A stretch of DNA of 64,000 nucleotides from Deltaproteobacteria bacterium (GCA_040218735.1 JAVJQW010000041.1:407801-471800), one strand, 5' to 3'. Shown: positions 4,667-39,527, numbered from the stretch's first letter. Made by a program: numbers and translations. The notes: generated by a model from the sequence alone, not told the origin.

Positions 4667-4678
4667 AAACTCCGACCG

Positions 4679-20800: not shown

Positions 20801-21003
20801 GGGAGAACGTCGTGCCGGGCACGGTGTTGGCCTTCCAGGTCAACGCGCTCAACCAGGACGCGACGGGCCCGTGCGCCCCCGCGGCGGCGGCGCCCCAGCA
20901 GTTCTCGGCGTTCATCGATGTGGTCGCGGACGGCGTGACGGTGGTCGACACCCGCGACGTCATCATCATCGTCCCGGCCGCCCCGCCGGGCGGACAGAAC
21001 TGA
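17782..21003 (+). CDS. Large Ca-binding vWA lipoprotein, CglD/beta-integrin-like adhesin
   Basis: Lipobox LAGC, RDGG linker, many DxDxDGxxD thrombospondin-type-3-like repeats, MIDAS-like MDTTGSM, PESGMEALYQ, VHVTDA, inserted PPC-like module, Cys-rich tail. True start may be TTG 17818. Confidence 0.8.
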   Translation: MGALRVLNQSPSLRHAGFFVLGLTLAGCAGDPAPSNPNRDGGGRVTPDSGFFDRDAGHNFLDSGVPRDGGDDGTRDGGDTTRDGGDNGMRDGGDATRDGGDNGMRDGGDAPRDGGDTGMRDGGPAPRDGGPAPRDGGVPLTDGDNDFILDVDEGNGLIDTDNDGTPDTMDPDSDNDGIPDSVEAGDMILTTAPIDTDGDGTPDFQDTDADNDQIPDLTEGTGDPDGDGIPNYLDPDSDNDGISDAVEGAGDPDNDGTPNFLDDDADGDGIPDTIEGQIPTDADFDGTPNFLDLDSDGDTIPDSIEGVVDTDNDGTFDAYDIDSDGDLVLDLAEAGTPAPVDTDNDGVFDFRDLDSDGDTILDTHEGPTSDVDQDGMPDRVDLDSDNDGWTDAQEAGDTDLATLPIDTDGDGLQDFRDLDSDGDSLGDMVEPGCPMGSERLLADTDADTFVDPAEVAYGSNPCDATSVIDDFYFVLPPGGPGDDAPLVFNNTQIDRADLAITMDTTGSMAGEIANLQASLSNTIIPGVNGVIPDAAFGVASFEDFPIAPFGDAPSGDIPFRLGTRVTTNAATSQAAVNGLTTRSGVDFPESGMEALYQVATGAGTSWTGGSVPAFNPAQNNVPNVADGTIGGVGFRQDSLPIVVHVTDAISHTERDYAASASTINAATTTQVQTALSSIGARIVTISSGLRPFNDLLCTGSISSFFGDVAPGTDVDFFELQGAVAGDTVDVEVLANGFLSTLDPLVAVTNATALIATNDDAAANTTDAALAGVTLTGAGPYYVAITSTGDTNFDGVGGTTAGHYVANVALNSASFMASPTECRADDGDARMTATVLVPVASAVPPVNVAQCLANCDATLGAVSPLFAEFTFPYEMSEDTGAVIPPCSWSEFGTARPTGCAANECCTGEAGAGVPPNAAGQCPLAFEIDPTGAGIDTAMISGIQALVQFSPFTITTQVREDPVELANSGIDTRCFIQSVVPVSATPPNACVPQPTIADLFPPAGQPDAWENVVPGTVLAFQVNALNQDATGPCAPAAAAPQQFSAFIDVVADGVTVVDTRDVIIIVPAAPPGGQN
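17980..18192 (+). repeat. Coding tandem repeat, 10 x RDGG-x(3-5)
   Basis: cgcgacggc/cgcgacggt recurs every 21-24 nt. Confidence 0.9.
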
Positions 21004-25203: not shown

Positions 25204-28032
25204 TCATTGGCACTCGGGGGGCGTGAGGTTCGCGTACGGCGTCTCGTTGGCGGCGAGGCCGGCCTGAATCTCCTCGTAGCAGGCCTTCACCTCGGCGGCG
25301 CGGGTCCACGTCCCCATCCAGCCGGTCGCGAGCTGACCGGTCTGCGTCACGCCGCTGAAGTCGACGAAGACCTTGAGGTGACAGTCGCGGCAGCTCTCGG
25401 CTTTGCACTCGTCCTGCGGTCCCCACGGGTTGCCGCACGGGGTGCCGCCGTTTTCGCCTTCCATGCACATGACGTAGTTCTTCCAGACGCCCGTGACCTC
25501 GGTCGGTTGGTTCGCGAAGTTCCCGGTGGAGCACGTCGGGTTGTACTCGACCTGCAGCGGGTTGCCGTCCTTGGTGAGCGTGTCGTTGCCGCGCGGGAAC
25601 CAGAACGTCGCCCAGTTCCAGTAGCTGAAGACCTGGTGGGTGCCCGACGAGATGTGGAAACCGACCAGGTACTGCCGCGGGCCGTCCGGGGGATCGTAGG
25701 AGTACAGGTCGTCCGGATCCGCGCTGGCCGGGAGCTCGCCGAGCGTGCGCCAGAAGCCCTTGTACACGCGCGCGTCCGTCTCGAACGCCGGCATCGAGTC
25801 GCGGAGTCCGGCGAAGCAGTACGAGACGCGGGCCGCCTGCGCGCAGGGGTCGAGGTAGCCGTTGCCGCGCAGCGTGTTGTGCGTGCTGCCGTTGTACATC
25901 GTGCGCTTCTGCGTGACGGGCCGGTCGCCGGGTTGCGGGAGGTCGAAGATCTCCTGGTAGGACGCGTACAGCATGTGCTGCGGCACGGAGTGCTCCCAGC
26001 GCGGGTAGCCGTTGACGAGCTCGGTCGCCTCGACGAGCGCGCACCACGCGGCGAGGCGCGACGTGGGGTCGACGTTCGGGTCGTCGCAGGAGGGCTTCAC
26101 GTGCTGAATGCCACCCGCGGCGCCGCCGTCGAGCGGAGGCTTCGGCTTCGCGATCTGCGTGGTGTGCGGCGGGGGCGGGGGCGGGAGGCCGCCGGGCGAG
26201 GTGTCCGTCGGACGGATGTAGATGCCGCCGGCGATCGGGTCCGCGATGGCGACGAAGTCCGGGGTACCGCAGCCGCTCGGTGCGCCACCGTCGAGCTGTT
26301 TGGAGAGGCGTCGCGCGAGGTCCTCGAGGAGCGACGCGTAGCTCAGCGCGGAGTCGTGCGCGCGGCCGGTGGCGACGACGCGACGCGAGCCGCGATCGAG
26401 GCCGGTTGCGGCCGGACGGACGAGGAGGAGATCGACCTTCACACCGGACGCGGGGTCCACGACGTTCGCGGGGACGGGGAGGAAACCTTCGTTGGCGGAT
26501 GCGTTCCACTGAAAAGATGCGATGTAGCTCGCGGACGCCGCGAAGACCGGACAGAGGTGACGGGCGAGGGTGTCGTCGCGAACCTCGCGGACGAGCCCGA
26601 AGGTGGAGGTCGGGTGGGCTTCGGCGTCGGTCGCTTCGAAGAGGCGCGGACACTTGTCACCGCTCGACGGCACCGCGCCGACGCGGAGGCGCACCAGCGT
26701 GGAGCTGCTGCCGGGGAGTCGTTCCATCCGGACGTCGCCGAAGTAGAAGTCCGTGCCTTCCGTGGGCAGGTCGCTGCCGTGCATCGACAGCTCGTCACCT
26801 TCGACGAGCGTGGTCGCGGATCCGATCGGCCGGCCATTGCCGTCGGTGAGTGAAGCGATGGTCGGCGCGGTGCCGAGGCCACACGCGGGCGCGGGGAAGC
26901 TGCTGTAGCCGGGCGCAGGGAAGGGCGCCGCGGGGGGCTTGAGCCCGAAGCGGACGAAGCGCTTCAGGCGCGAGAGGTCGGCGGAGTCGATGTCGCCGTC
27001 GGCGTCGACGTCGGCCGCCGCGACACACGCGACGTCGTCGGTGCCCGCGAGGCGCGCCGAGAGCGCGTGGACGTCGTCGTTGTCGACGCTGCCGTTTTCG
27101 TCGACGTCGCCGCGGATGAACGGCGCGCCGGCGTAGGTCACGCGACCGCCCGTGGCGATGGAGCGGTCGGCGGTGTCGAGGACGATCGCGCCGCTCGCGA
27201 ACGCGGCGGACGGACGCGGCGCGACGACCTGAAGGCGGCTGTCGCTCTGCGTGAGGATCTGCGCGGGCTCCCCAGCGACACGAACGCCGAGGACCTGCGC
27301 GAGGTGCCCGCCGAACACGGTGAGCGTGGTGCCGGTCGGCGACGCGCTGGTTTCGGTGCACTGCGCGTCGGGCGGGAGCGCGGAGTCGATCAGCGTGACG
27401 TTTGCGAAGCCGACCTCACCGGCGGCGGCGAGCGGCGCGCCCTGCGCGGCGGAGACCGTGAGTGTCGCGGACGCGAGCGCGGTGCCGGACGCGTCGTGCG
27501 TGAGCAGGTTGACGCCGTTCGAAGACGCCTCGAGCAGGCTGCCGCTGCGCGACAGGCGAACGGCGACGGGGAGCGAGACCGGGACGGGCGTCGAAGCCAC
27601 GGTGGTGCCGTCGCGCGCTTCGGCGCTGAGCCACACGCTGCCGGCGGCGCGCGAGACGGTGATGCGGAAGCGGGGCGCGTCGGGCGCGCGGACGATCGTC
27701 CGTGCTTCGAGGCCGCCTTCGTTGCCTTCGTCGACGTCGGTGATCAGCGCGGAAACGACGAAGTCGTCGGTGATGTCCTGGCCGACGACGCGGATCGCAT
27801 CGTCGGGGCCGTAGCCGTCGCCGTCGCCGCACAGGCGGAAGCCGTTGCCGCCCGTCGTGCCGGTCGTGCCGGTGGGTATCGATGCGCCGAGCGATTCGCC
27901 GACGTCGTGCGCGTACCAGTCGGCGATCGCGCTGCTCGCGAAACACGGGCTCGCGCCCATCGTCTGTGCCTCGGCGTTAGGGGTGATTGCGCAGGTCGCG
28001 ATGCCGAGTGCGCACAGAACTCGTAGTCTCAT
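25204..28032 (-). CDS. Large secreted modular protein: lectin-like N-terminus, IPT/TIG, dockerin-like pair, C-terminal CxxCH domain
   Basis: RBS GAGGAGG, ATG 28032, signal peptide ending AEA; RGDVDENGSVDNDD...AADVDADGDIDSADL; LVGFHI...WNWATFW...SCRDCH. Confidence 0.8.
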   Translation of the reverse strand: MRLRVLCALGIATCAITPNAEAQTMGASPCFASSAIADWYAHDVGESLGASIPTGTTGTTGGNGFRLCGDGDGYGPDDAIRVVGQDITDDFVVSALITDVDEGNEGGLEARTIVRAPDAPRFRITVSRAAGSVWLSAEARDGTTVASTPVPVSLPVAVRLSRSGSLLEASSNGVNLLTHDASGTALASATLTVSAAQGAPLAAAGEVGFANVTLIDSALPPDAQCTETSASPTGTTLTVFGGHLAQVLGVRVAGEPAQILTQSDSRLQVVAPRPSAAFASGAIVLDTADRSIATGGRVTYAGAPFIRGDVDENGSVDNDDVHALSARLAGTDDVACVAAADVDADGDIDSADLSRLKRFVRFGLKPPAAPFPAPGYSSFPAPACGLGTAPTIASLTDGNGRPIGSATTLVEGDELSMHGSDLPTEGTDFYFGDVRMERLPGSSSTLVRLRVGAVPSSGDKCPRLFEATDAEAHPTSTFGLVREVRDDTLARHLCPVFAASASYIASFQWNASANEGFLPVPANVVDPASGVKVDLLLVRPAATGLDRGSRRVVATGRAHDSALSYASLLEDLARRLSKQLDGGAPSGCGTPDFVAIADPIAGGIYIRPTDTSPGGLPPPPPPHTTQIAKPKPPLDGGAAGGIQHVKPSCDDPNVDPTSRLAAWCALVEATELVNGYPRWEHSVPQHMLYASYQEIFDLPQPGDRPVTQKRTMYNGSTHNTLRGNGYLDPCAQAARVSYCFAGLRDSMPAFETDARVYKGFWRTLGELPASADPDDLYSYDPPDGPRQYLVGFHISSGTHQVFSYWNWATFWFPRGNDTLTKDGNPLQVEYNPTCSTGNFANQPTEVTGVWKNYVMCMEGENGGTPCGNPWGPQDECKAESCRDCHLKVFVDFSGVTQTGQLATGWMGTWTRAAEVKACYEEIQAGLAANETPYANLTPPECQ

Positions 28033-28068
28033 TTGGTCGTATCCTCCTCGGGTCACCGGACCCGCGAC

Positions 28069-28116
28069 GACATGGGTCGCGACCGCTTCGGATCTGATCT
28101 CGGACTGCAAAAAATC
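28069..28116 (-). promoter_or_regulatory. Candidate ECF promoter: T-tract, TCAGAT-N18-ATGTC
   Basis: Minus strand GATTTTTTgcagtccgaGATCAGATCCGaagcggtcgcgacccATGTC; same core and spacing as the 34056-34105 copy. Confidence 0.7.
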
Positions 28117-28134
28117 TGCGACCATCCTCTCGCT

Positions 28135-30780
28135 TTGAAACGCGGCGGAGGGATCGTGCTCTTGTGCGCCGCGCTGGCCTGCACCGAGCGACGCCCTGCG
28201 CCCGAGCCCGAGCTGGTCGACCTCCCGATGCGCGGGTGCGTGCACGTGAGCCGCGTGTGCGAAGTCGGCGAAGCGCCGCTGGTGTTCTACGCCGAGGACG
28301 CCAAGGAAGTACGCGCTGCGCTCGACGGGACGGAGCTGACGACGCGAACCGCGACGCTCGCGACGGGCGTGCGCGTGTCGGTCGACGTCCCCGCGCGGCG
28401 AGGCACGCTGACGTTGTCGATCCTGGGTGACGTGCCGCGGCTCATGCGCGTGTCGGTCGATGCGGTGCCGGCGGACGTCGCGGTGCTCACGGCGCCGACG
28501 GATCGCACTTCGGGTGCGCGGCGCACGCAGGATTCATCGCGCGCGGAGGCGATCGCGAAGTTCGCCGAGGCGCGCCGACTCTACAAGGAGGGGGACGCCG
28601 AGGCGGCGATGGCCGCGCTCACGAAGTCCGCGGAGCTCGCGGACCGCGCGAGCTTGCGATCGCAGGCGGCGCGGAGTCGTCTGCTCGCAGTGTGGATCGC
28701 GGCCCGCAGCCTGCGTGACTTCGAGGCGGCGCGCTCCACGCTCGACCGCGTCCCAAAGCGGTCGCCGTACGACAGTGAGGCGGATGTCCTCCGCGCATTT
28801 CACGTCGCGGTCGTAGCGAGTGAGGTGGGTGATCGTCGCTCGGCGCTCGCAGCGGCCGGTCCGGCGCGGATGCTCGCACGAACGCTCGGTCTGAACGTGC
28901 TGGCGACACGGCTCGAGATGCGGGAGCTGAACACGCTCCACGAGCTGGGGCGTTTCGACGAAGCAGCGACGCGTTGGCGGAGCTTGGTACGACAGGGAAC
29001 GGGAGATGGGTGTCTCGACGTCCTCGCGACCGGCAACCTCGGCTGGTCGCTCATGCGGGCTTCGAAGGGATCCGAGGAAGCACGTGTCTGGCTCGAGGCT
29101 GCGCTCGCCGCTGACGAATCGCGCTGCACGGACCCCCCTCCCACGCGTCGCGCGAATCTCCTCGTCAACTCCGCGCTGCTGGCGCTCGAACGAAAGGAGC
29201 TCGACCGCGCGCAGGCGGCGCTCGACTCGAGCCGCCGGTCGCCGATGCTGCCCGAACATGCGCAGTGGGCGATGTTGATCGACGCCTCCATTGCCCTGGA
29301 GCGCGGAGACGTGAAGCGAGCCCTCGCGGACTTCTGGGCCCTCGCGGAGCGGGCGGACGCGACGCGTTTGACCGAAATCGCGTGGCACGCCTGGGTCGGC
29401 GTAGGGCGCAGCCGGCAAGCACTCGGTGATCTCGACGGCGCCGCAGAGGCGTACGCAGCGGCCGAGGCCCGGACGGCGCGGGAAGCCGTGCTCGTCCCGG
29501 TCGACGGAGGGCGGCAGCATCTCTACGGCGATCGCGAAGAGAGCGCGCGTCGGTGGGTTGCGCTGGAGATCGACCGCGGTCGCCCGAAGGCTGCGTTCGA
29601 TGTGGTGCGTCGCGCTCGACGACGCACGCTCGCCTCGATCGAGCTCGCGCGCCGGATCGCCACGTTGGATGGGGCGTCGCGTACACGGTGGGAGCGGGAC
29701 GTGGCTCGATATCGTCGGACGCGCCAAGCCCTCGAAGACCGGAGCGCAACACTCTGGCTGCTGCCCAAGTCCGAGCGCGCGAAGCAGGAAGCCGAGGTCG
29801 AACGTTCGGTCGCCGAGGCGCGCCGCGCTCTCGACGAAGCGATCGGCAAGTTGGCGCGCACGGATGTGTTCTCCACGCTCGCGAGCGAACGCGGCGATCC
29901 GACCGCCGCACCGTTCCGTTCGCCGGCCGAGGGTGAGGTGATGGTCGCTTGGTATCCGCTCGCCGAGGGTTGGGCGGTGTTCGCGGTCAGCCGCGAGGGC
30001 GTGGTCGTCGAGAGGCTGGTCGGGGAGCCCACGCCGGACGCGATCGTGGGCAAGCTCCGCGGACCCATCGCGGCGGCTCGGCGTGTGACGGTTCTGGCTC
30101 CAGGGGGCGTCGACCGCTTTGCGCTTCACCTCGGTCGACTCGGCGGAGAGCCACTCGCCCGACGCAAGCTCGTCGCGTACGCCCTCGACCTCCCACCGCG
30201 CGAGGAACGTTCGAATGACCGAAAGAGCGCACTCGTCGTCAGCGATCCACGCGGCGACCTACGGGCGGCTCGGGACGAGGGCACCCGCGTCGCGACGAAC
30301 CTCTCGTCCCGCGGCTGGTCCGTATCTCGAGCCCAGTCCGACGAAGCGACACGGCGCCGCCTCCTCGTCGGGCTCACGCGGGTGGAGCTCCTCCACTACG
30401 CGGGTCACGGCACGTTCGGGGGCCACGAGGGTTGGGAGAGCAGCCTGCGTTTGGCGGACGGTCGTGTGACGGTGGGCGACATCCTCACGTCGACCGCCGC
30501 GCCCGCGACGGTGCTCCTCCTCGGGTGTCGTACGGCGGAGAGTAGCGACGTCGGGGCGAGCGCGGGGCTGGGGATCGCCCAGGCCTTCGTCCTCGCCGGG
30601 GCCCGCGCGGTCGTCGCGGCGACGCGCGAGATCGACGACGAGGCCGCCGCCGAAGTGTCGGCCCGAATTTCTTCCGCCCTCGATGACGGATCCGACCTCC
30701 TCACCACCTATCAACGGTCTGTACACGGAACCGACGACGACGTGCCCGAACGGGACGCCATCGTGGTCCTGACCCCCTGA
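28135..30780 (+). CDS. TPR-CHAT caspase-like protease, probable lipoprotein
   Basis: TPR-like helices; CHAT motifs VVSDPRGDL, LHYAGHG (His), VLLLGC (Cys), GIAQAFVLAGARAVVA; lipobox-like AALAC after TTG 28135 (ORF is open from 28033). Confidence 0.88.
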   Translation: MKRGGGIVLLCAALACTERRPAPEPELVDLPMRGCVHVSRVCEVGEAPLVFYAEDAKEVRAALDGTELTTRTATLATGVRVSVDVPARRGTLTLSILGDVPRLMRVSVDAVPADVAVLTAPTDRTSGARRTQDSSRAEAIAKFAEARRLYKEGDAEAAMAALTKSAELADRASLRSQAARSRLLAVWIAARSLRDFEAARSTLDRVPKRSPYDSEADVLRAFHVAVVASEVGDRRSALAAAGPARMLARTLGLNVLATRLEMRELNTLHELGRFDEAATRWRSLVRQGTGDGCLDVLATGNLGWSLMRASKGSEEARVWLEAALAADESRCTDPPPTRRANLLVNSALLALERKELDRAQAALDSSRRSPMLPEHAQWAMLIDASIALERGDVKRALADFWALAERADATRLTEIAWHAWVGVGRSRQALGDLDGAAEAYAAAEARTAREAVLVPVDGGRQHLYGDREESARRWVALEIDRGRPKAAFDVVRRARRRTLASIELARRIATLDGASRTRWERDVARYRRTRQALEDRSATLWLLPKSERAKQEAEVERSVAEARRALDEAIGKLARTDVFSTLASERGDPTAAPFRSPAEGEVMVAWYPLAEGWAVFAVSREGVVVERLVGEPTPDAIVGKLRGPIAAARRVTVLAPGGVDRFALHLGRLGGEPLARRKLVAYALDLPPREERSNDRKSALVVSDPRGDLRAARDEGTRVATNLSSRGWSVSRAQSDEATRRRLLVGLTRVELLHYAGHGTFGGHEGWESSLRLADGRVTVGDILTSTAAPATVLLLGCRTAESSDVGASAGLGIAQAFVLAGARAVVAATREIDDEAAAEVSARISSALDDGSDLLTTYQRSVHGTDDDVPERDAIVVLTP

Positions 30781-30793
30781 CGCGAGAACGAAC

Positions 30794-32701
30794 ATGAAAC
30801 GCTTGAACAACGCCCTTTGGATTGCCCCTCTCCTCGTCGCCGCCTGTGGCGCGCCCGAGGAGCCCGTCGAGACCGCGGAGGCGGGCATCACGCCCGCACA
30901 GCAGAGTCACTGCGACGCGTTGCGCGCCGCCGGCGCGACCTCGCTACCCTGGTATTGCGGTGGCTTGCAGAGCACCTTGCCGCCGGAGCTCGACCGCGCG
31001 TGCCCCGACAACCAGTGGGTCGGCTACCGCCTGACCTCCGCGCCTTGCCCGGTCGTCACGGCGCCGCCGGCCCTCGGGACCTGGAACAAGACCGAGCCCT
31101 TCACGGGCTCCATCCCGGGCCTCGAGCGCTGGTGTGTGTACCGCTGGGAGCCTGCGGTGGTCGGCACGCCGCCCGACACCTCGGTGCTCCCCGATACGCC
31201 GGACCTCCGTCTGGAGCGGGACTGTGAGGTCGTGAGCGCCCACGCGCGCCTTCCGAACGGTGCGTGGCAGCCCCTGTCGACCGCTTATCTCGAGCAGATC
31301 GATGTCCCGGAGATCGCCGGCCTGCCGTTCCAGCAGACGACGCGCGTCGCGATCGTCGACAGCTCGCTGGAGCGCGTCGGGGCGGTGAGCGAAGGCCTGT
31401 CGCGTCACGGCGAGGCGATGGGCTCGGTCGTCCACAACCTGACATGCCTCGGACCGAACGGTGCGCCGTGCGGCGCGGAGCTATCGAATCACCTCGCGCT
31501 CCCGCGCATCGACACCGAGACCTACGGAGAGCGCGGCGGGCACTACGGCACGCAGTCGGAGCTCGGCGTCGCGATGTTCCAGGCGATCTTCTCCTGGCGC
31601 TTCGGACCGACTTGGACCCCCGGCTCTCGTTTCATCATGAACCTGAGCGTCGGCTGGAACGAGGCCTACGGCGGTGCACCGTCGAACCCGAGCCTGCCCG
31701 CGAAGCTGGTCTACCAGGTTGCGCAGTACGCCTCCTGCAACGGCGCGCTGATGATTGCGGCGTCCGGCAATCGCTCGACCGACCTCACTCCGGGGCCGAT
31801 CTTCCCGGCGGGTTGGGAGCGCGCGACGCCCTTCTGCTCCGACGCGCCGCCCAACGCCTACGACCCGCTGGTGCACGCCGTGGGCGGAGTCGATGGGCGT
31901 GACTCCACACTCGCGCTCTCGCGGATCGCCTCGCAGCCGCGCCTCGTCGCACCGGCCGCGCAGGTGAACGTGGAGCAGCCCGTGCTCAACAACGTCCCGA
32001 CCGTGATCGCGAGCGGGACGTCCTTCGCCGCGGCGGGGGTTTCGGCGACCGCCGCGCTCGTGTGGAGCCTGCGCCCCAACCTCCAGCCGTACCAGGTGAT
32101 GCAGGTCGTCTATCAATCCGCGATCCCCGTGGGCGGCGCGTCGGACTTCGGGTTGAACAACCAGGCCTTCGCGCGGCGTCGTGTCTCGGTGTGCCGCGCG
32201 GTGACGCTCGCCTGCCTGGGCCTCGCCTGCCCGCCGCTCCCCGCGTGTGAGAACCGTGCAGCGGGCGTCGACGCCACGGCAGACTTCGCGACGGCGATTT
32301 CCATCACCTACCCCGGGTTGATGGGACCGCAGAACGCGGTGCCGGGGCCGAGCGCAACGAATCCGAGCGACCTCGATCCCTTCAAGGAGCCGTGGGTCGT
32401 CCCGCAGCCCGACGAGGAGCCGTGTCCGCTTTGTGGGATCACCGCTGCTACTTTCGAAGGTCAGATCGATCAGGACATCGCGCAGTCCGGCGCGACCATC
32501 ACCAACAGCACGGTCATCGTCACGACGTTCCAGGGCGACGAATTCGTCATCGCGGTCGACATCCCCGACCCCACCCAGCCCTTCGAGATCGAGCTGGCTC
32601 AGCTGCAGGATCAGGACCTGAAGACCGGGAAGTTCGAATTGACGACGGACGAGAAAGGTGAGGAAACCGTCCGCGTCAGTGAGCTCTTCATCAAACCGTA
32701 G
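30794..32701 (+). CDS. S8 subtilisin-like serine protease, lipoprotein
   Basis: Lipobox VAAC; VAIVDS (Asp), HGEAMG (His), AASGN (oxyanion Asn), SGTSFAAAGV (Ser). Confidence 0.88.
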   Translation: MKRLNNALWIAPLLVAACGAPEEPVETAEAGITPAQQSHCDALRAAGATSLPWYCGGLQSTLPPELDRACPDNQWVGYRLTSAPCPVVTAPPALGTWNKTEPFTGSIPGLERWCVYRWEPAVVGTPPDTSVLPDTPDLRLERDCEVVSAHARLPNGAWQPLSTAYLEQIDVPEIAGLPFQQTTRVAIVDSSLERVGAVSEGLSRHGEAMGSVVHNLTCLGPNGAPCGAELSNHLALPRIDTETYGERGGHYGTQSELGVAMFQAIFSWRFGPTWTPGSRFIMNLSVGWNEAYGGAPSNPSLPAKLVYQVAQYASCNGALMIAASGNRSTDLTPGPIFPAGWERATPFCSDAPPNAYDPLVHAVGGVDGRDSTLALSRIASQPRLVAPAAQVNVEQPVLNNVPTVIASGTSFAAAGVSATAALVWSLRPNLQPYQVMQVVYQSAIPVGGASDFGLNNQAFARRRVSVCRAVTLACLGLACPPLPACENRAAGVDATADFATAISITYPGLMGPQNAVPGPSATNPSDLDPFKEPWVVPQPDEEPCPLCGITAATFEGQIDQDIAQSGATITNSTVIVTTFQGDEFVIAVDIPDPTQPFEIELAQLQDQDLKTGKFELTTDEKGEETVRVSELFIKP

Positions 32702-33344
32702 CGCCCCCGACGGGGCCTCGGATCTCGAGCTCGTCCAACAGGCCCTCGGTCGCGACGCCGCCGCCTGTCGCCGCCTGGTGCGGCGGCTGACGCCCGTCAT
32801 CCAGCGCCGGGTGAACGGCGCCCTGATCCGGCACCACCGCATCGACCGGCAGGAGACCCTCGACCTCACGCAGGACGTCTTCCGCCTCCTCTTCGACAAC
32901 GACGGGCGCGTCCTACGCACCTGGGATCCGGAGCGCGGGCTGTCGCTGGAGAACTTCGTCGGCCTCGTCACCCGGCGCGAGGTGAACGCCATCCTCTCCT
33001 CCGGGCGACGCAGCGCGTGGGCCGAAAAACCCACCGCCCCGGACGACCTGGAGCCCCAGGCCGCCGCGCCGGAGGCCGAGGTCCGGACGCTGTCGAAGGA
33101 TCTCCTCCGCGAGGTCCTGAAGCGCCTCGAGCAGCGCCTGAGCACCAAGGGCCTCGCGCTGTTCTACGCGCTGTTCGTGCAGCACCTGGACGTCGAGACC
33201 ATCTGCGCCGAGCACGACATGAAGCGCGACGCCGTCTACACCTGGCGCGCGCGGCTCAAGAAGACCGTCGCGACGATCTCCGAAGAAATCGCGTCAGATG
33301 ACGGCCTGTCACCACCAACGTCACGAGCGGGAGCATCCGGATGA
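32679..33344 (+). CDS. ECF-type RNA polymerase sigma factor
   Basis: DLELVQQALGRD..A.RRLV, DLTQDVF (region 2), LRTWDPERGLSLENFV, region 4 HTH VETICAEHDMKRDAVYTWRARL; start 32658 or 32679. Confidence 0.88.
   Translation: MSSSSNRSAPDGASDLELVQQALGRDAAACRRLVRRLTPVIQRRVNGALIRHHRIDRQETLDLTQDVFRLLFDNDGRVLRTWDPERGLSLENFVGLVTRREVNAILSSGRRSAWAEKPTAPDDLEPQAAAPEAEVRTLSKDLLREVLKRLEQRLSTKGLALFYALFVQHLDVETICAEHDMKRDAVYTWRARLKKTVATISEEIASDDGLSPPTSRAGASG
33294..33322 (+). promoter_or_regulatory. Candidate ECF promoter TCAGAT-N18-ACGTC inside the sigma gene 3' end, upstream of the anti-sigma
   Basis: gcgTCAGATgacggcctgtcaccaccaACGTC, 18 nt before ATG 33341; same spacing as the other two copies. Confidence 0.55.
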
Positions 33345-34057
33345 ATCGCGACGAAGATCTGCTCGAAGCCCTCGGCGAAGCCGCAAAGGACCGCGACGAG
33401 GAGGATGACCGCTGGTGGGACGCGGTCGCGGCGAAGGACGCCTCGGCGCTGCCCTCCGAGGAGGCCGTCGAAGCGCTGAGGCCCCTCGACGACGCGGAGA
33501 TGGACGGCATCGCCGACATGCTCCTCGCGGAGGAGAAGCCCGCCGTCGAAGCGGATGAGGGCGGCGCGACGGTCGTCTCGATCTTCTCCGCCCGCCGCTG
33601 GGCCGCCCCCGCCGGCGCGCTCCTCGCGGTCGCCGCCGCGGCGCTGCTGTTCCTGAGCACGCCGAACGACGCGATGCTCCCGCGCTACGCGCTCGACGTT
33701 CGCTCCGGCGAGAAGGTCGTCCGCGGCGACGACCACACCCAGACCGAGATCACCGCGTACTCCGACGGCGCGACGTTCGACTTCGTCCTCGTCCCCGACG
33801 AGCGGGTCACCGGAGACGTCGCGCTCGCCGCGGTGGTGATCGGCGACGGCGGGGAGAAGGTTTGGGACGCCCCCTTCACCCGCCTGGACGGCGGCACGCT
33901 CCGCGTCCGCGGCGTCGTCGGCGAGCAGCTCGACCTCGCTCCGGGCGACTGGCGCGTCGTGTTCTTCGTCGGCCCGAAGGACCGCCTCCCGACGACGCCC
34001 ACGCACGAAACGCCGTCCGGCGTGCAGCGCTTCGAAGCCCAGATCCGCGTCCGCTGA
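33341..34057 (+). CDS. Putative membrane anti-sigma factor
   Basis: ATGA-coupled to the sigma gene; acidic helical N-terminus, one TM (WAAPAGALLAVAAAALLFL), C-terminal beta-sandwich. Confidence 0.72.
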   Translation: MNRDEDLLEALGEAAKDRDEEDDRWWDAVAAKDASALPSEEAVEALRPLDDAEMDGIADMLLAEEKPAVEADEGGATVVSIFSARRWAAPAGALLAVAAAALLFLSTPNDAMLPRYALDVRSGEKVVRGDDHTQTEITAYSDGATFDFVLVPDERVTGDVALAAVVIGDGGEKVWDAPFTRLDGGTLRVRGVVGEQLDLAPGDWRVVFFVGPKDRLPTTPTHETPSGVQRFEAQIRVR

Positions 34058-34105
34058 TTTTTTTTCCCTCCGCGGATCAGATCCGCACCCCCCACCGCCA
34101 ATGAC
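34056..34105 (+). promoter_or_regulatory. Candidate ECF promoter: T-tract, TCAGAT-N18-ATGAC
   Basis: GATTTTTTTTccctccgcgGATCAGATCCGcaccccccaccgccaATGAC, 44 nt before ATG 34150. Confidence 0.7.
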
Positions 34106-34149
34106 CGACCGAAGCGCTCGCACCGAGCGCTCGGAAGGAAGAAAACAAA

Positions 34150-36300
34150 ATGTCACGTACCCAGCTCCGGCACGGCCGGTTCATCGCATCGATCTGCGCC
34201 GGTCTGGCGGCGCTCACCTTCACGGGTTCGGCGTTCGCCGAGCCGTGGGCCGGCGACGTCACCGGCGAGACGCCCTGGACCACCGCGACCGGCGACTTCG
34301 ACAACGACAACCAGCGCGACCTGGTCTTCGGTTTCCCGAAGCGCTCGGGCAACGGCCTGGTCGGCATCTGGATCAACGACGGAGACCCGCGCCACAGCGC
34401 GGTCGAAAACGGCAGCAACAACGGCGCCGCCTACTTCAACCTCGTCCAGAACAACTTCCTCACGATCTTCCCCGCGTCGCCCGTCATGCAGGGCTCGCCG
34501 GTCTACAACCAGGCCCAGCCGCTCTTCGGCGCGAGCGTCGTGACCGGTGACTTCGACAACGACGGCAAGGACGACATCGCGTTCGGCGCACCCGGCGCGA
34601 CGATCAACGGCCGCTCCAACGCCGGCGCGGTCGTCGTCATCTACGGCAAGGACCTCGGCAACCCGAACGCGAACATCCCGCCGACCCCCGGCGCTGCGGT
34701 CACGTTCACGCAGGACTCACCCGGCGTCGGCTCCTCCGCGGAGACCAACGACTACTTCGGTGAAGTGCTCGCGGTCGGTGACTTCGACTGCAACGGCGTC
34801 GACGACCTCGCGATCGGTGTTCCGCGCGAGGACATCGGCTACAGCGCGCCGGACGCCGGCTACGTGCACGTCCTCTACGGTCAGACGAACAGCGGCCTCA
34901 CCGGCGTCGGCAGCTCCACGCTGTGGCAGGGCGGCGGCCCGCTCTCGGACACCTACGAGGCCAACGACCACTTCGGCGCCGCGCTCGCGGGCGGGGCCTT
35001 CGCGCCGTCTTCGTACTTGGGCCAGCGCTGGTGTGACAGCCTCGCGATCGGCGTGCCCGGCGAAGACTTCACGTACAACTACCAGACCCGCGTCGACGCC
35101 GGCCGTGTGCACCTCATCATCGCGCCGAGCTACGCGCAGGGCGGTTACTTCACGGGCTTCAAGCCGATCACCGAAGGCTTCGAGTTCCTCCTCGACCAGT
35201 CCACGAACGGCGTCTACTCCTCCCCCGAGAACAACGACACGTTCGGCTCGGCGCTCGGTCGTGTGACCGGATCGCGGGCTGCTCGCGGCAGCCCCACCCC
35301 ATTCATCGACGCGCTGTGGATCGCCGCCGCCGGCGAGTCCTGCAACAACTGTGTGGACGGCGTCGTGCACCGCCTCGACTGGTACCTCGGCAGCTCCTGG
35401 ACCGGCTCCAGCGTGCGCCCCGACATCCTGGAGACCGAGACCGGCGTCGTCGTGGAGAAGGGCGACCAGTTCGGCCGCTGGTTGCAGTACATCCCGGAAG
35501 GCATCGACCCGCAGACCGCCGAGATGTTCGTCGTCTCGCCCGGCACCAACAAGTACACGTCCTCCGAGAGCGCCGCGTGGCCCGCGGGGCGCGCCAACGC
35601 GAACCGCTACATGGCGTACGACGGCTTCGTGCAGGCGGCCGACGACCTCGGCTTCGTGCTGATCATCCCCGAGTGGGAGGACTACAACTTCGGCAACGAC
35701 TTCCAGCCCAACTTCAACGCGGGCGGCTACCGTGCGCTCCTCGGTCGCGACATCCGCGCCGACTGGTGGATCGACCGCATCGTGGACCGCTACGCAAACG
35801 TCGGTCTCGGCGACGGACGGATGCACCTCTTCGGTCACTCGGCTGGCGGACAGTTCGCGATTCGCTACGCGCTGCAGCGCCCCGAGCGGATGCTGAACGT
35901 CATCGTCGAGTCGTCGGGCAGCATGCCGCGTCCCACGATCGACGAGAACCCGAACGACGGCATCGAGCCGACGCCGAGCCCTTGGCGCGGTGGCTTCGGC
36001 AACATCTGGCTCCCGGCGGCGAACGGTTGGCCGGCGCTCGTGTTCTTCCCCAACGAGGCGGGCGCGGCGTGGGCCGCGGCGAACCGCCCGATCAGCATCG
36101 TGGCCGGGTCGCTCGAGGGCGCTTCGCACACGGACGTGGTGATGGACTGGATGGACGACGTCGCGACGACGTGGGGCCCGCACCAGATGACGTACTGCGA
36201 AGTGCAGGGCGTGGACCACGACTCCAAGAGCGCGCACCGCTCCGCGCTCAAGACCGTGTGGCCGAGCCTGTCGTTCCCGGGCGCGCCCGCGTGCAACTGA
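34150..36300 (+). CDS. Secreted FG-GAP (integrin-alpha-like propeller) protein with C-terminal alpha/beta hydrolase
   Basis: Signal peptide; GDFDNDNQRDLVFG, GDFDNDGKDDIAFGAPG, GDFDCNGVDDLAIGVP; nucleophile elbow GHSAGG and a C-terminal His (VDHDS). Confidence 0.85.
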   Translation: MSRTQLRHGRFIASICAGLAALTFTGSAFAEPWAGDVTGETPWTTATGDFDNDNQRDLVFGFPKRSGNGLVGIWINDGDPRHSAVENGSNNGAAYFNLVQNNFLTIFPASPVMQGSPVYNQAQPLFGASVVTGDFDNDGKDDIAFGAPGATINGRSNAGAVVVIYGKDLGNPNANIPPTPGAAVTFTQDSPGVGSSAETNDYFGEVLAVGDFDCNGVDDLAIGVPREDIGYSAPDAGYVHVLYGQTNSGLTGVGSSTLWQGGGPLSDTYEANDHFGAALAGGAFAPSSYLGQRWCDSLAIGVPGEDFTYNYQTRVDAGRVHLIIAPSYAQGGYFTGFKPITEGFEFLLDQSTNGVYSSPENNDTFGSALGRVTGSRAARGSPTPFIDALWIAAAGESCNNCVDGVVHRLDWYLGSSWTGSSVRPDILETETGVVVEKGDQFGRWLQYIPEGIDPQTAEMFVVSPGTNKYTSSESAAWPAGRANANRYMAYDGFVQAADDLGFVLIIPEWEDYNFGNDFQPNFNAGGYRALLGRDIRADWWIDRIVDRYANVGLGDGRMHLFGHSAGGQFAIRYALQRPERMLNVIVESSGSMPRPTIDENPNDGIEPTPSPWRGGFGNIWLPAANGWPALVFFPNEAGAAWAAANRPISIVAGSLEGASHTDVVMDWMDDVATTWGPHQMTYCEVQGVDHDSKSAHRSALKTVWPSLSFPGAPACN

Positions 36301-36309
36301 AGCGGTACC

Positions 36310-37662
36310 TCAGATGTTCATCTCGACCTGTAGGTAGCCGATCGTCGGGTTCGGCGTGGGCGCCCCTCGGGCGGCGTTCACGGCGAACCCGCGGCGCCAC
36401 AGGTGTGCGAAGCCTCCTTCCAATCTCACGTTCCCCGGCAGGACGTCGTACTGCACGCGCACTTCGAATTGCTCGCCGAGCGTCGCCCCCGACTGACCCG
36501 TGGGATCGCTGTACCCCGACCCGAACCAAGCGTCGCGCGCGGCGGCGAGTGTGAACGAACGGGCGGTGATGAGCGTGCGGACCCCGTCGAAGGGGCTCGC
36601 GTCGAGTTGGATCCCCGGCGTGAACAGGTTCGTACGGTTGAACGCGAGGTAGATCATCGTCGGCCCGTACTCGGGGCGCGGGACACCGTAGAGGTGGTTG
36701 AAGCCGTGGCTCACGTCGTCGTCGGGATCCTCGTCGCCGCTGGCGTACTCGAACGTGAGGGACAGGCTGGGCTGGGCCCACACGTCGAAGGTGTAGCCGG
36801 TGGACGCGTGGAGGAAGCCGGCAAGGTGGTTCAACTGCTCGACCTCGCCGACCTGAAGGAGCGCCTCCAGCTCGAAGTGGACGTCACCCACCGCGGGGTT
36901 CTTCACCACGCGGACGCCGGGGTTGAGCAGGTCGGCCCGGCCGTTGGCGCGGCGGTCGTGGCGACCGAAGACATACGGCTCGAACGCGACGTCGCCGAAG
37001 ACCCGCCGCACGTAGACGCCCCAGAAGACGTTGTCGAAGGACTCCGTGTCGAGCTCGAAAGCGTTGTCCGCGATCGCGTCGCGGTCGGTTGGTCTGATTC
37101 GCACCGGGAGCGTCGCGAACGCGTCGACGGTCGTGTCGCTCGCTTCGTAGTGCAGGTGTCCGCCGGTGAACGCGTTGATCGTGTTGCGGTAGCGGTTGCG
37201 CGCGATGAAGCGACGGCTACCGAGGTCGAGCGTGAAGCGACCGAGGAGGAGCGACAGCTTTCGCTCTTCGTTTTCGGCGTCGAAAGCGACGTACGCCTGG
37301 AGGATGTCGAGCGGGTTGGCGTACGCGAAGTCGACGGGAGTGTTGTCGTCCGAGAGGTACGCGCGCATGTCGACGACCTCCCCGCCGACGCGCCACGCCG
37401 AGCCGCGCGCCTCGGCGAAGATACCGGTACGGGTCGAGAGCACCTGGTCGCCGCCCGTCAGGCCGGCCCGGAACTGTTCGTCGATCGCCTCGAAGCGGGT
37501 CTGGTTGTGCAGCTCGACCGTGAGCCACTCGGGGAGGCGGTCCGAGAGCCGCCAGGGCTCGGCCGACGACGACCTCGGAGAGGAAGTCGTCATGGCCACG
37601 AATGCGATGGCCGCGAGCTGCAGGGCGGTGGCGCGGGGCCATCGGTTCTCGGCGATCGACAT
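36310..37662 (-). CDS. Alginate-export (AlgE-like) family outer-membrane porin
   Basis: NPLDILQAYV, GRFTLDLGSRRFIARNRYRNTINAFTG, EYASGD; start uncertain. Confidence 0.8.
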   Translation of the reverse strand: MSIAENRWPRATALQLAAIAFVAMTTSSPRSSSAEPWRLSDRLPEWLTVELHNQTRFEAIDEQFRAGLTGGDQVLSTRTGIFAEARGSAWRVGGEVVDMRAYLSDDNTPVDFAYANPLDILQAYVAFDAENEERKLSLLLGRFTLDLGSRRFIARNRYRNTINAFTGGHLHYEASDTTVDAFATLPVRIRPTDRDAIADNAFELDTESFDNVFWGVYVRRVFGDVAFEPYVFGRHDRRANGRADLLNPGVRVVKNPAVGDVHFELEALLQVGEVEQLNHLAGFLHASTGYTFDVWAQPSLSLTFEYASGDEDPDDDVSHGFNHLYGVPRPEYGPTMIYLAFNRTNLFTPGIQLDASPFDGVRTLITARSFTLAAARDAWFGSGYSDPTGQSGATLGEQFEVRVQYDVLPGNVRLEGGFAHLWRRGFAVNAARGAPTPNPTIGYLQVEMNI

Positions 37663-37751
37663 GGGCGTGGCACGTAACATCGATTCGATGCGGCGTCGCG
37701 GTGTTCCGCGTTGATGCGCCGACGCACAAAACTCACCGATCCGCGCGGTGC

Positions 37752-39527
37752 ATGTTGCTGAGGCCTCAGAACTCACCGAAGGTGTTCGTGGGGGGACTCT
37801 TGGCGGGAGGATCTGCGAGCGGCGCCAAGCCCGGACATGGCCTGGAACGTCGGCTCCTCGTGGGATGGGTCGCCGGGTCGGTCGTCGTGGGTCTCGCCGC
37901 GCTCGCCGGAGCGTTCTTCCCCCTCTACGACCTGCTGTTGGAGCAGCGCGAGGCCCAACTCCTGGAGCAGTGCCGTGCGACCGCACGCGGCGTCCAGCAG
38001 TTCGAGCGACGCATCGAGGCGATCGCGGCGCAGGTGTCGAGTCGAACCCGGGCGCGCGGTGCCCTCGAGGCGCTCAACACAGAACGAAGCACGCTTGCGG
38101 AACACGAGGCGATCGTCCGTCCGATCCTCGAGGACGCGCTCCGACGTTCCCGCGGTGCCATCGCGTGGTTGGTTCGTCACGACGCCGACGGGCGTCGTGT
38201 CATCGCCATGGGGTCCGAGGCCTCGCCCATCGCGCTGGTCCCGGACGCACCCGAGCTCCTCCTTCGGGGCGTCGTCGAGAACGCCGGGGAACGCTACGTC
38301 GTCGTCGAGTCCGCGATCCTCGACCCGACCGGGCGTCGCGTCGGGACCGACCAGGTCGGGTTCGATCTGGCGGCGCTCCGTGCCTTGTTGGACGACGCGA
38401 CGTTGCTCTCGTCGGACGGACAGATCGCCCTCGGGGCTCCGCTCTCTCGCGCGTGGCGGGACTGGGCGTTGGCGCCGACCTCCGAGGTGGTGGCGGACGA
38501 CGAGGTCGGTGAGCGGCTCCTGACCCGCGCGGCGGTCGACGATACCCAGTGGTGGGTCGTCCGCTCGACGCCGTACGCGTCCTCGATCACCGGCCAGCCG
38601 CTTCGGCGCCTGTTCTGGATCATGGCGGTGTTGATCCTCGTCGTGGTCTTGGCGACGGCGCTGTCGCCGGTTCTGTTGGCGCCCGTGTCACGACGACTCG
38701 TGGCGGACGCGCGTCGGATCGAGGAGGAGTCCGCGTCCCGGTTGGAGGCCGAGGAGGCGCTTCGAAAGCACCTCGACAACCTCGAAGAGGTGGTCGCGGA
38801 GCGCACCGCTTCCTTGGAGCGTTCGAACGCGGACCTCGAGCAGTACGCCTACCTCGTCTCGCACGATCTCAAGGGCCCGATTCGCACGATCTCCGCGTTT
38901 GCGGAGGTCCTCGAGGGCAACGAGGCGATCGCCGAGGACCCTGAGGCGCTTCACCAGATCCACTTCGTCCGCCAGGCCGCGAAGCGTTCGTCGGACATGG
39001 TCGATGCGCTCCTGGAGCACGCGCGTGTTTCGCGGGTGTCGTTGGCTCCGACGACGGTCTCGCTCGATGAGGTCACCCAGGAGATTTGTAGGGATCTCGG
39101 TACGCGAATTCGGGACACGGGTGCGAACATCGAGGTGGGTCAGCTCCCGACGCTCGAGACGGACCCGCAGCTCGTTCGGTGCATCCTCCAAAACCTCATC
39201 GAAAACGCGTTGAAATATCGGCGGCCCTCCACCCCTCCGCACGTCTGGGTGCGATCGACGGACGTCGATGGGCGCATCGTGGTCGAGGTCGAGGACAACG
39301 GTGTGGGCTTCGACCCGAAACACACCGAGCGGGTGTTCATGAAGTTCTCGCGCCTCCACAACGACGACGCGATCGAGGGCGTGGGGATCGGGCTCGCCTT
39401 GGTTCAACGTTCCGCCGAGCGACTCGGAGCCCGGGTGTCGGCGAGCTCACGACCCGGGGTCGGTAGCTGTTTCCGCGTCGAGTTCGGCGTCGATCTCGAA
39501 GAAGACCTCAGCCCGAGAACGCGATGA
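37752..39527 (+). CDS. Membrane sensor histidine kinase (no adjacent response regulator)
   Basis: Two TM helices, LEQYAYLVSHDLKGP, QNLIENALKY, EDNGVGF, GVGIGL; start uncertain. Confidence 0.88.
   Translation: MLLRPQNSPKVFVGGLLAGGSASGAKPGHGLERRLLVGWVAGSVVVGLAALAGAFFPLYDLLLEQREAQLLEQCRATARGVQQFERRIEAIAAQVSSRTRARGALEALNTERSTLAEHEAIVRPILEDALRRSRGAIAWLVRHDADGRRVIAMGSEASPIALVPDAPELLLRGVVENAGERYVVVESAILDPTGRRVGTDQVGFDLAALRALLDDATLLSSDGQIALGAPLSRAWRDWALAPTSEVVADDEVGERLLTRAAVDDTQWWVVRSTPYASSITGQPLRRLFWIMAVLILVVVLATALSPVLLAPVSRRLVADARRIEEESASRLEAEEALRKHLDNLEEVVAERTASLERSNADLEQYAYLVSHDLKGPIRTISAFAEVLEGNEAIAEDPEALHQIHFVRQAAKRSSDMVDALLEHARVSRVSLAPTTVSLDEVTQEICRDLGTRIRDTGANIEVGQLPTLETDPQLVRCILQNLIENALKYRRPSTPPHVWVRSTDVDGRIVVEVEDNGVGFDPKHTERVFMKFSRLHNDDAIEGVGIGLALVQRSAERLGARVSASSRPGVGSCFRVEFGVDLEEDLSPRTR

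Follow-up and report, generated by a model that had tools for sequence, protein, structure and literature searches.

The locus described here lies in a window of 64,000 nucleotides (nt) from a deltaproteobacterium (Deltaproteobacteria bacterium, GCA_040218735.1 JAVJQW010000041.1:407801-471800), which is the whole stretch of DNA that was analysed; its G+C content is 70%, and the source genome comprises 11.6 Mb in 70 contigs. Four plus-strand genes within 28135-34057 encode, in order, a TPR-CHAT protein, an S8 subtilase, a putative sigma factor of the extracytoplasmic function (ECF) type and a single-pass transmembrane (TM) homologue of anti-sigma factors. All gaps between them are at most 13 nt or are replaced by overlaps: the CHAT and S8 genes are spaced by 13 nt, the start of the sigma gene overlaps the 3' end of the S8 gene, and the stop codon of the sigma gene is overlapped by the start of the anti-sigma gene (ATGA). 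Every part of the four-gene set that an earlier note had read from the sequence of the window (a CHAT protease, a subtilase, an ECF sigma factor and a single-TM protein, coupled within the same interval) is present. On either side of the set lies a gene for a large protein of secreted type, here called cargoL and cargoR (Table 1). The set is considered below as a candidate protease-gated sigma switch.

Table 1. Positions of the module genes, the flanking genes and the promoter-like elements in the window
Feature	Position (nt)	Strand	Description and basis
cargoL	25204-28032	minus	942 amino acids, secreted-type; open reading frame (ORF) and start call, Pfam
Promoter-like element before cargoL	28089-28116	minus	GATTTTTT 28116-28109, 9 nt, GATCAGATCCG 28099-28089
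Putative TPR-CHAT lipoprotein	28135-30780	plus	881 amino acids; Pfam, AlphaFold2, Foldseek, profile search
Putative S8 subtilase lipoprotein	30794-32701	plus	635 amino acids; Pfam, conserved triad
Putative divergent ECF-type sigma factor	32658 (or GTG 32682) to 33344	plus	228 amino acids from GTG 32658; family profile
Putative single-TM anti-sigma homologue	33341-34057	plus	238 amino acids; alignment, AlphaFold2, hhalign
Promoter-like element before cargoR	34056-34085	plus	GATTTTTTTT 34056-34065, 9 nt, GATCAGATCCG 34075-34085
cargoR	34150-36300	plus	716 amino acids, secreted-type; Pfam FG-GAP, Abhydrolase_1

The CHAT ORF spans 28033-30780, and its likely start, TTG at 28135 (another candidate, ATG, lies at 28072), gives the lipobox-like N-terminus MKRGGGIVLLCAALAC. 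The CHAT domain was recognised by Pfam (6.1e-19), with His754 or His758 (HYAGHG) and Cys798 (LLGCRT) as catalytic candidates. The AlphaFold2 model built from a 36-sequence alignment (predicted local distance difference test, pLDDT, 86.8; predicted TM-score 0.86) consists of an N-terminal beta-sandwich at residues 35-110 with two invariant cysteines, a TPR solenoid at 134-583 and a CHAT caspase-like domain at 600-881. Comparison of this model with the PDB using Foldseek placed entries of DdvA on top (8rw5, 8.0e-14; 8rot_A, 7.4e-13, 16% identity), followed by Csx29 and separase. According to the published account, DdvA is a TM anti-sigma factor encoded beside an ECF sigma factor, and its periplasmic part of 900 residues is a dimeric TPR-CHAT unit (PMC11506125). 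VIA-align returned Z scores of 23.9 for Csx29, 21.9 for DdvA and about 21 for separase, which are effectively tied (within about 2 Z), and the alignment with DdvA had the widest span (model residues 32-880; 624 residues aligned, root-mean-square deviation 6.9, 18% identity). With the CHAT family profile (A4), DdvA was the best natural match, at 2e-10 versus 0.004 for Csx29. Profiles were needed, as single-sequence PDB searches with the CHAT, sigma and anti-sigma proteins returned nothing relevant. Csx29, named together with Csx30 in the earlier note, is a strong structural match, but the system nearest to the window is the periplasmic DdvS/DdvA one rather than the cytoplasmic Csx29/Csx30 pair. 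The predicted separase/craspase-type TPR-CHAT fold, the His-Cys dyad and the lipobox-like signal together are those expected of a DdvA-type protease.

The second gene product matched Peptidase_S8 of Pfam (6.5e-15), covering profile positions 108-273 only. It also has a lipobox-like N-terminus, MKRLNNALWIAPLLVAAC, and carries Asp189, His205, Asn283 and Ser410, that is, the Asp-His-Ser order together with the oxyanion Asn. The conservation of the catalytic residues was assessed in alignments of the paralogues and the strongest related matches only (CHAT, E<1e-100, n=64; S8, E<1e-50, n=42), weaker matches having been dropped beforehand. The residues His754, His758 and Cys798 were invariant in 64/64 CHAT sequences and Asp189, His205 and Ser410 in 42/42 S8 sequences, and Asn283 was kept in 40 of the 42. 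A lipobox-like N-terminus was found in 45/64 CHAT and 28/42 S8 sequences using a crude pattern (a basic residue, a hydrophobic run and [AGST]-Cys), which, judged by eye, overlooks some real signals and accepts some that are spurious. Ordinary signal peptides occur in a few members. As the earlier note had proposed, both proteases are thus predicted to be exported, and both keep their catalytic residues. The invariance of the CHAT dyad suggests that proteolysis is part of the function of the module.

The sigma gene starts at GTG 32658 or, more likely from the N-termini of its homologues, at GTG 32682. The protein alone matched no Pfam family, and its sole hit, TIGR02937 (6.1e-05, 22.7 bits), lies below the cut-off of 42.9; since it passes no curated cut-off, its ECF identity was taken from the family profile. 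Among 985 candidates from a collection of 5.8 billion proteins, 55 homologues were found at E<=1e-5, among them closer ones of 83% and 69% identity; most have no Pfam annotation, and several are labelled as ECF sigma factors by their source. The profile of 31 members (A1) matched a PDB entry named 'ECF sigma factor' (9isn_F, 5.3e-13, over positions 11-201, almost the full length) and CnrH (1.3e-05), while Sigma70_r2 was matched by 16 and Sigma70_r4_2 by 12 of the 31 members. By this family evidence, the third gene product is predicted to be a divergent ECF-type (group 4) sigma factor.

A tblastn search of the source genome revealed 11 further loci at which a gene of the same sigma family and one for CHAT are at most about 6 kb apart, as well as other loci with a partial set. 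Pfam analysis of 36 proteins of six loci separated these paralogous modules into two subtypes, one resembling the window (sigma, a TM protein without family assignment, CHAT and S8) and the other (L019, L024 and L028) consisting of CHAT, a zf-HC2 anti-sigma factor of 228-268 amino acids, an S8 protease of 763-784 amino acids and a Sigma70_ECF sigma factor. Examples of paralogous loci among L017-L032 lie at C64:168.8-172.9k, C54:4.6-10k, C50:28.5-34.3k, C67:80.5-86.4k, C42:507-513k and C17:219-224k.

The fourth gene product of the window matched no family, Pfam included, and PF13620 was not detected. Its AlphaFold2 model (36-sequence alignment, mean pLDDT 83.8) begins with helices at residues 3-30, 40-45 and 51-64; a disordered linker leads from these to a TM helix (91-105), which is followed by a beta-sandwich (116-237). 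For the latter, Foldseek found generic immunoglobulin (Ig)-like folds only. Residues 1-85 contain neither His nor Cys, and the HxxxCxxC motif of class I zinc anti-sigma factors is accordingly absent. When the family profile (A3, 36 sequences) was aligned with that of the zf-HC2 subtype (A5, 4 sequences) using hhalign, however, a probability of 99.2% (E 8.2e-20) was obtained over columns 23-254, and the alignment was collinear through the N-terminal domain, the TM helix and the ectodomain. The fourth gene product, lacking HxxxCxxC yet homologous to the zf-HC2 anti-sigma factors of the paralogous modules, therefore appears to be a zinc-less derivative of them, in agreement with the anti-sigma role that the earlier note had given to this TM protein. 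It probably binds the sigma factor, as its homology, the overlapping genes and its +1 position in 47/50 loci suggest. In the 36 anti-sigma sequences, the sole invariant columns are Tyr116 and Arg128, which belong to an LPxY...GG...RG segment right after the TM helix; the PxY...RG motif was found again in the zf-HC2 subtype and in a fused protein of the same genome.

This fused protein (P0056 of L032, about 3965-7135) is encoded next to a related sigma gene as one chain of about 1050 amino acids, comprising in order HLRDCRLC (an HxxxCxxC anti-sigma domain), a TM helix, PPAYEIRVATRG, beta-domains, TPR and CHAT. Its CHAT domain was detected by Pfam (1.4e-19), and its first 300 residues aligned with the A3 profile using hhalign (68.7%, E 4.5e-05). 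P0056 is thus predicted to have the architecture of DdvA.

To place the module outside its own genome, one genome per species was scanned, which gave 178 pattern matches. Relatives are encoded by 129 of these, and the analysis continued with the best 80. These best 80 loci are labelled as Acidobacteriota (25; Thermoanaerobaculia, Holophagales), as Myxococcota lineages, Bradymonadia or 'delta proteobacterium' bins (50), as unassigned (4) and as Pseudomonadota (1), and none as actinobacterial. Their gene content was determined by running hidden Markov models built from the paralogues on all ORFs. All four genes were found in 36/80 loci, CHAT with anti-sigma and sigma in 21, anti-sigma with sigma in 16, sigma only in 3, CHAT with sigma in 2, CHAT with S8 and sigma in 1, and S8 with anti-sigma and sigma in 1. 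In the subset of 50 complete loci, with at least 7 kb on both sides and matches counted within 9 kb at E<1e-10, all four genes occurred in 26; CHAT was found in 42, the anti-sigma gene in 47 and S8 in 27. Most often the genes were arranged as sigma>anti-sigma>CHAT>S8 (21/50), and the order of the window itself occurred in 2/50. The four genes are therefore conserved together, as the earlier note required, and they appear to form a conserved functional unit unrelated to CRISPR. For this particular copy, a search of 40 relatives with the sigma factor at E<=1e-20 found a match in 11/19 genomes of the same family and in 1/21 from other families, and no close orthologue of this copy is present in the 40, since no match exceeded about 50% identity. 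The anti-sigma family, in contrast to the fused form discussed below, is large; an exhaustive profile search found 3748 representatives (50% clustering) at E<=0.001, 2854 at 1e-10 and 1050 at 1e-30, and the best 150 of them are all 242-425 amino acids long, that is, unfused.

The known system closest to the window is DdvS/DdvA of M. xanthus. In the DdvA report, removal of TPR-CHAT exposes DdvA to RseP, which then cuts it, and a signal-induced self-cleavage of the juxtamembrane linker by CHAT was proposed, with the remark of the authors that validation will be possible only once the signal is found (PMC11506125). The operon further holds a protein whose function is unknown, together with a C25-type peptidase, and fused DdvA-like anti-sigma factors were described there for several Myxococcota and one Comamonas only (PMC11506125). 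The window shares with this system an ECF sigma factor next to a single-pass anti-sigma factor, a presumably periplasmic TPR-CHAT unit of separase/craspase architecture with a His-Cys dyad, an extra peptidase in the operon (C25-type there, S8 here) and, as proposed for both, regulated intramembrane proteolysis with CHAT as the site-1 protease. It differs in that TPR-CHAT is fused to the anti-sigma factor in DdvA, whereas the window has separate genes for an anti-sigma homologue of 238 amino acids and a lipoprotein of 881 amino acids; the window is therefore a split variant and not a member of the DdvA type in the sense of that paper. DdvA has a CHCC zinc site, whereas the window protein has none and carries an Ig-like ectodomain with LPxY...RG; the neighbours are CBASS (cyclic oligonucleotide-based antiphage signalling system) and CRISPR genes in the former and genes for secreted-type proteins in the latter, and the two CHAT proteins share only 16-18% sequence identity. 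The DdvA-like fused form is also narrowly distributed, as far as that account goes, in contrast to the 3748 representatives of the split anti-sigma family.

A second comparison concerns ECF54 of Actinobacteria. As described in a classification of ECF sigma factors and in a review, sigma genes of this group commonly neighbour those for a carboxypeptidase-regulatory-like protein (at +1), for a subtilase and for a CHAT/TPR protein, no anti-sigma factor was recognised, the group is 100% actinobacterial with the predicted promoter GTATCAG/CTCC, and proteolytic control was suggested from context alone (PMC7826278, PMC8999054). In the examined part of the classification supplement, CHAT is mentioned under ECF54 only (PMC7826278). 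The likeness to the window lies in a subtilase and a TPR/CHAT protein near an ECF sigma factor and in a small protein of beta-sandwich type at +1; the -35 element GTATCAG faintly resembles GATCAG in the window, and the predicted -10 element CTCC was not seen there. Unlike the ECF54 protein, annotated as carboxypeptidase-regulatory-like (a type that Pfam did not find in the window), the +1 product of the window is a predicted TM anti-sigma homologue with an Ig-like beta-sandwich. ECF216, a Myxococcales group with an anti-sigma factor at +1 and a carboxypeptidase-regulatory-like neighbour, was considered as a candidate group for the window sigma factor.

The type III-E Craspase (Cas7-11, Csx29, Csx30 and RpoE/CASP-sigma) likewise ties a TPR-CHAT protease to a sigma inhibitor (PMC10028731). 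Csx29 is cytoplasmic and RNA-guided, whereas the window CHAT protein has a lipoprotein signal and its presumed substrate is a periplasmic ectodomain. In line with the CRISPR-independent cascade proposed in the earlier note, the scan of the window found no cas genes. PADLOC gave only a weak subtilase match for the six genes of Table 1 and generic MotB-like, methyltransferase-like and HEAT-like matches for the 35 other called genes, with Cas matches in 0 of the 41; no CRISPR-like array was found in the window, and neither the Cas7-11/gRAMP setting of Craspase nor a CBASS/CRISPR defence island like that of DdvS/DdvA was found there.

The classical precedent for such a cascade is RseA/DegS/RseP of sigma-E, in which a single-pass anti-sigma factor receives a periplasmic site-1 cut that leaves a short stub and then an M50 site-2 cut. 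DegS, the site-1 protease there, is a PDZ serine protease, whereas the presumed site-1 protease of the window would be a caspase-like cysteine protease, a lipoprotein encoded in the operon itself. Genes of the M50/RseP type are present in the source genome. The literature searched by full text held no description of the split Myxococcota/Acidobacteriota form. CHAT and a subtilase beside an ECF sigma factor (ECF54, Actinobacteria) and the fused DdvA are known from the sources cited. The module is most aptly described as a split DdvS/DdvA-type switch independent of CRISPR, in which CHAT would be the core partner and S8 a frequent accessory.

In summary, the four genes appear to constitute one signalling unit, a split form of the DdvS/DdvA-type ECF sigma switch, with a probability that we put at roughly 0.6. 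In the model, all of whose proteolytic steps, like the cleavage site, the signal and the regulon, are inferred, the helical domain on the cytoplasmic side of the single-pass anti-sigma factor would keep the sigma factor at the inner membrane, and the anti-sigma factor would present its conserved juxtamembrane LPxY...RG segment and Ig-like domain to the periplasm. A signal, probably proteinaceous, would be read by the TPR and the N-terminal beta-domain of the membrane-anchored CHAT lipoprotein, whose caspase-like domain would then cut the anti-sigma ectodomain close to the membrane. The gene order, the fusion evidence and the DdvA precedent argue for such a periplasmic interaction between TPR-CHAT and the anti-sigma ectodomain. 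The candidate cut lies after the invariant Arg128 and would leave a stub of about 23 residues; it is proposed because the invariant Tyr116/Arg128 segment, 11-23 residues past the TM helix, suits an M50-sized stub and because separases, structural relatives of the CHAT protein, cleave after Arg according to the literature. An RseP-type site-2 protease would complete the cleavage and release the sigma factor. The S8 lipoprotein may be a frequent accessory, either as an upstream or downstream protease of the cascade or as a co-expressed output.

Several observations weigh against this reading. The TM-scores between the CHAT model and DdvA are low (0.23), as expected of a flexible multi-domain protein, and are not decisive. 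The N-terminal domain of the anti-sigma homologue has no zinc ligands, so its binding to the sigma factor is argued from homology and gene order only, and the A3 profile does not find the N-terminus of DdvA by sequence. S8 is absent from 23/50 complete loci. The last point indicates that S8 is not required for the core switch and may be accessory, whether as a second tier of proteolysis, as a factor for maturation or as an output; its presence in 27/50 loci, against 42/50 for CHAT, likewise indicates that the two proteases are not equivalent. A complex of CHAT 20-881 and anti-sigma 106-238, predicted with a separate alignment for each chain, scored 0.43, 0.46 and 0.46, but one control reached 0.35, and the prediction was counted neither way.

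The optional S8 also bears on a different explanation, in which both proteases are outputs. An ordinary ECF sigma/anti-sigma pair would then be controlled by a DegS- or Prc-like site-1 protease encoded elsewhere, and CHAT and S8 would be co-transcribed secreted enzymes under sigma control. The predicted export of both proteases and the frequent presence of secreted hydrolases beside the modules in the source genome fit this explanation, and a survey of ECF contexts notes that neighbourhood alone cannot separate regulators from targets (PMC7826278). The fused anti-sigma-TPR-CHAT proteins DdvA and P0056, however, place CHAT physically in the sensor, CHAT accompanies the sigma/anti-sigma pair in 42/50 loci, in various gene orders and on both strands, and a TPR-CHAT architecture is typical of regulated, substrate-specific proteases. 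We consider this explanation quite unlikely.

It is equally improbable, in our estimate, that S8 makes the site-1 cut and TPR-CHAT acts as a gate shielding the anti-sigma ectodomain, the shield being lifted by signal binding or by self-processing of CHAT before S8 cuts. Shielding of this kind is exerted by RseB on RseA, the S8 triad is invariant, and S8 follows CHAT directly in 21/50 loci. On the other hand, 14 of the 50 complete loci have CHAT, anti-sigma and sigma with no S8 within 9 kb, and the invariance of the CHAT dyad in 64/64 sequences argues for a catalytic role of its own.

The split switch may also control the flanking genes. The true start of cargoL is ATG 28032 behind GAGGAGG and not the first start of its open frame at 28245. 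The cargoL product has a signal-peptide-like N-terminus and matches to Dockerin_1 (1.3e-08 to 4.4e-08) and TIG/IPT (7.6e-04) of Pfam, and no paralogue was found in the source genome at E<=1e-5. Its C-terminal part of 498 amino acids (25204-26700, minus strand) matches no Pfam family and holds a single CxxCH motif (SCRDCH); the nearest protein-atlas clusters of this part are automatically named 'cytochrome c family' (score 0.94; recognition 1525, which is under the mark for reliability), which is a lead only. The cargoR product has a signal-peptide-like N-terminus, FG-GAP repeats (1.6e-24) and a C-terminal alpha/beta-hydrolase domain (Abhydrolase_1, 1.1e-05, GHSAGG), with a weak NCBIfam match to a polyhydroxyalkanoate-depolymerase type (2.3e-04) far below the cut-off.

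Upstream of the two genes, the 11-mer GATCAGATCCG is found 66 and 75 nt before the start codons, each copy in the orientation of its own gene, with a GATTTTTT(TT) tract 9-11 nt upstream and CCCATG/CCAATG 12 nt downstream. The element of cargoL lies within the 102-nt divergent region common to cargoL and the CHAT operon, and the T-tract of cargoR, GATTTTTTTT, begins inside the stop codon of the anti-sigma gene. A common run of at least 11 bases between two 120-nt regions arises by chance with a probability of 0.012 (61/5000 dinucleotide shuffles), and the collinear T-tract makes a chance origin less likely still. The two large secreted-type flanking genes preceded by one promoter-like motif, as described in the earlier note, were thus found. 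Genome-wide, GATCAGATCCG occurs in 50 copies, of which the other 48 lie, by eye, in coding-like G+C-rich sequence without a T-tract; with 48/50 copies looking coding, the 11-mer was rejected as a genome-wide regulon motif. A paralogous locus has a 12-mer of its own, TCTGTAAGATCC, upstream of its sigma gene and of the next gene.

Control of both flanking genes by the sigma factor is plausible from these data, and the released sigma factor probably drives them via the T-tract/GATCAGATCCG element. It is nevertheless possible, as a tentative alternative, that the element has nothing to do with the sigma factor, being either bound by a dimeric transcription factor or a repeat that arose by chance, and that the sigma regulon lies elsewhere in the genome. 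The motif link is weak, consisting of two sites at one locus, and the cargoR copy is embedded in the perfect palindrome CGGATCaGATCCG, a core that fits a dimeric transcription factor better than a sigma factor. A second copy of CAGATCCGC at 34040-34048, in the 3' end of the anti-sigma gene and 35 nt upstream of the one contained in the 11-mer, suggests repeated binding sites, and a histidine kinase gene lies 1.3 kb downstream (37602-39527). Shared 11-mers were not enriched within paralogous loci (128/909 pairs, against 5473/37739 between loci), in a comparison whose 390-nt regions swamp any signal. The flanks of the 36 four-gene loci elsewhere (65 proteins) are heterogeneous, many being housekeeping proteins and 30 having no Pfam match; about 10 of the 65 are secreted-type hydrolases and the like (S8 twice, trypsin, papain-like, lipase, patatin, M48, polyglycine-hydrolase-like, transglutaminase-like and CarboxypepD_reg). 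Against the alternative stand the same orientation and similar distances of both sites with their collinear T-tract, the lack of this T-tract context in the other 48 genomic copies, and the separate 12-mer before the sigma gene and next gene of the paralogous module.

The sigma genes themselves gave no sign of the motif. In the 120 nt before 75 sigma genes of the family (L033-L112), the window motif was not enriched (AGATCC, 2 versus 1.7 expected; GATCAG, 0), whereas TATAAT/TATACT/TAGAGT-like boxes were, often about 7-25 nt (by eye) before the start codon; these upstream sequences are mutually related, so that z-scores overstate the enrichment. The boxes suggest housekeeping-type promoters with short-leader or leaderless mRNAs for the sigma operons rather than autoregulation, which is not evident, since the 75 regions show sigma-70-like -10 boxes and no related motif. 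A sigma-70 promoter scan of 27800-34400 in the window found 0 sites.

Neighbours of the paralogous modules include FG-GAP-astacin, trypsin-CARDB and Big_2 proteins and a protein of 1848 amino acids resembling RHS/SpvB/TcdB. The latter, a Tc/RHS toxin-like protein with RHS repeats, FG-GAP, SpvB and TcdB-middle/N-terminal domains (L019:2-5545, minus strand), is encoded directly downstream of a module of the zf-HC2 type. The exchangeable cargo suggested in the earlier note finds local support only, in the window motif, in the 12-mer of the paralogue and in the secreted hydrolases and toxin-like genes beside some paralogues, but not in the flanks of the 36 loci elsewhere, which are mostly unrelated housekeeping genes or genes of unknown function. 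The 12-mer TCTGTAAGATCC fits private promoters; the two general tests (75 sigma upstream regions and shared 11-mers) found nothing. In its widest form, the proposal would be a large family of protease-gated sigma switches in Myxococcota and Acidobacteriota, with a TPR-CHAT site-1 cut after Arg128, S8 as a second tier, the dozen copies as a sensor array for different extracellular protein cues and private promoter motifs for the neighbouring secreted enzyme and toxin genes; taken as a whole, we regard this as somewhat unlikely.

The split arrangement matters for experiment. The proposed self-cleavage of DdvA could not be tested, because the signal has yet to be found and the protease shares a single chain with its substrate. 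In the window the protease and its presumed substrate are separate proteins, so that point mutants would allow a caspase-like site-1 cut of an anti-sigma factor to be examined in trans. Compared with the fused form, the split form is also much more frequent, with 3748 representatives of the anti-sigma family, two phyla among the fetched loci and about a dozen copies in one genome, and would amount to a large class of envelope signalling systems that is still unexplored. Should private promoters prove real, they would also make it possible to read off the secreted enzymes or toxins under the control of each copy.

Some minor observations concern the window and its surroundings. The G+C content at third codon positions is 0.81-0.93 in the module genes (CHAT 0.81, S8 0.88, sigma 0.87) versus 0.93-0.96 for many neighbours, and the paralogous modules behave likewise. 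Among the sequencing runs listed as containing this DNA there is no RNA run; in four DNA runs, a 24-kb metagenome contig is 98.9% identical across the whole stretch (70 differences in 6401 bases), which is too close for footprinting. Near-identical metagenome contigs vary at 28032, where one (depth 5) lacks a base in the start codon of cargoL, possibly through an assembly error; one strain has A>G in the T-tract (28111) and three have C>A at 28119, and some of these may be assembly errors as well. Tandem repeats of 45-96 nt at 17977-18877, within an ORF for 1073 amino acids (17782-21003) whose product has no Pfam match at 1e-4, code for Asp/Gly-rich (DxDxDG-like) repeats. Outside the module and its flanking genes, a 12-mer, AGGAGCGTCACG, is common to two intergenic regions, at 40123 and 43218.

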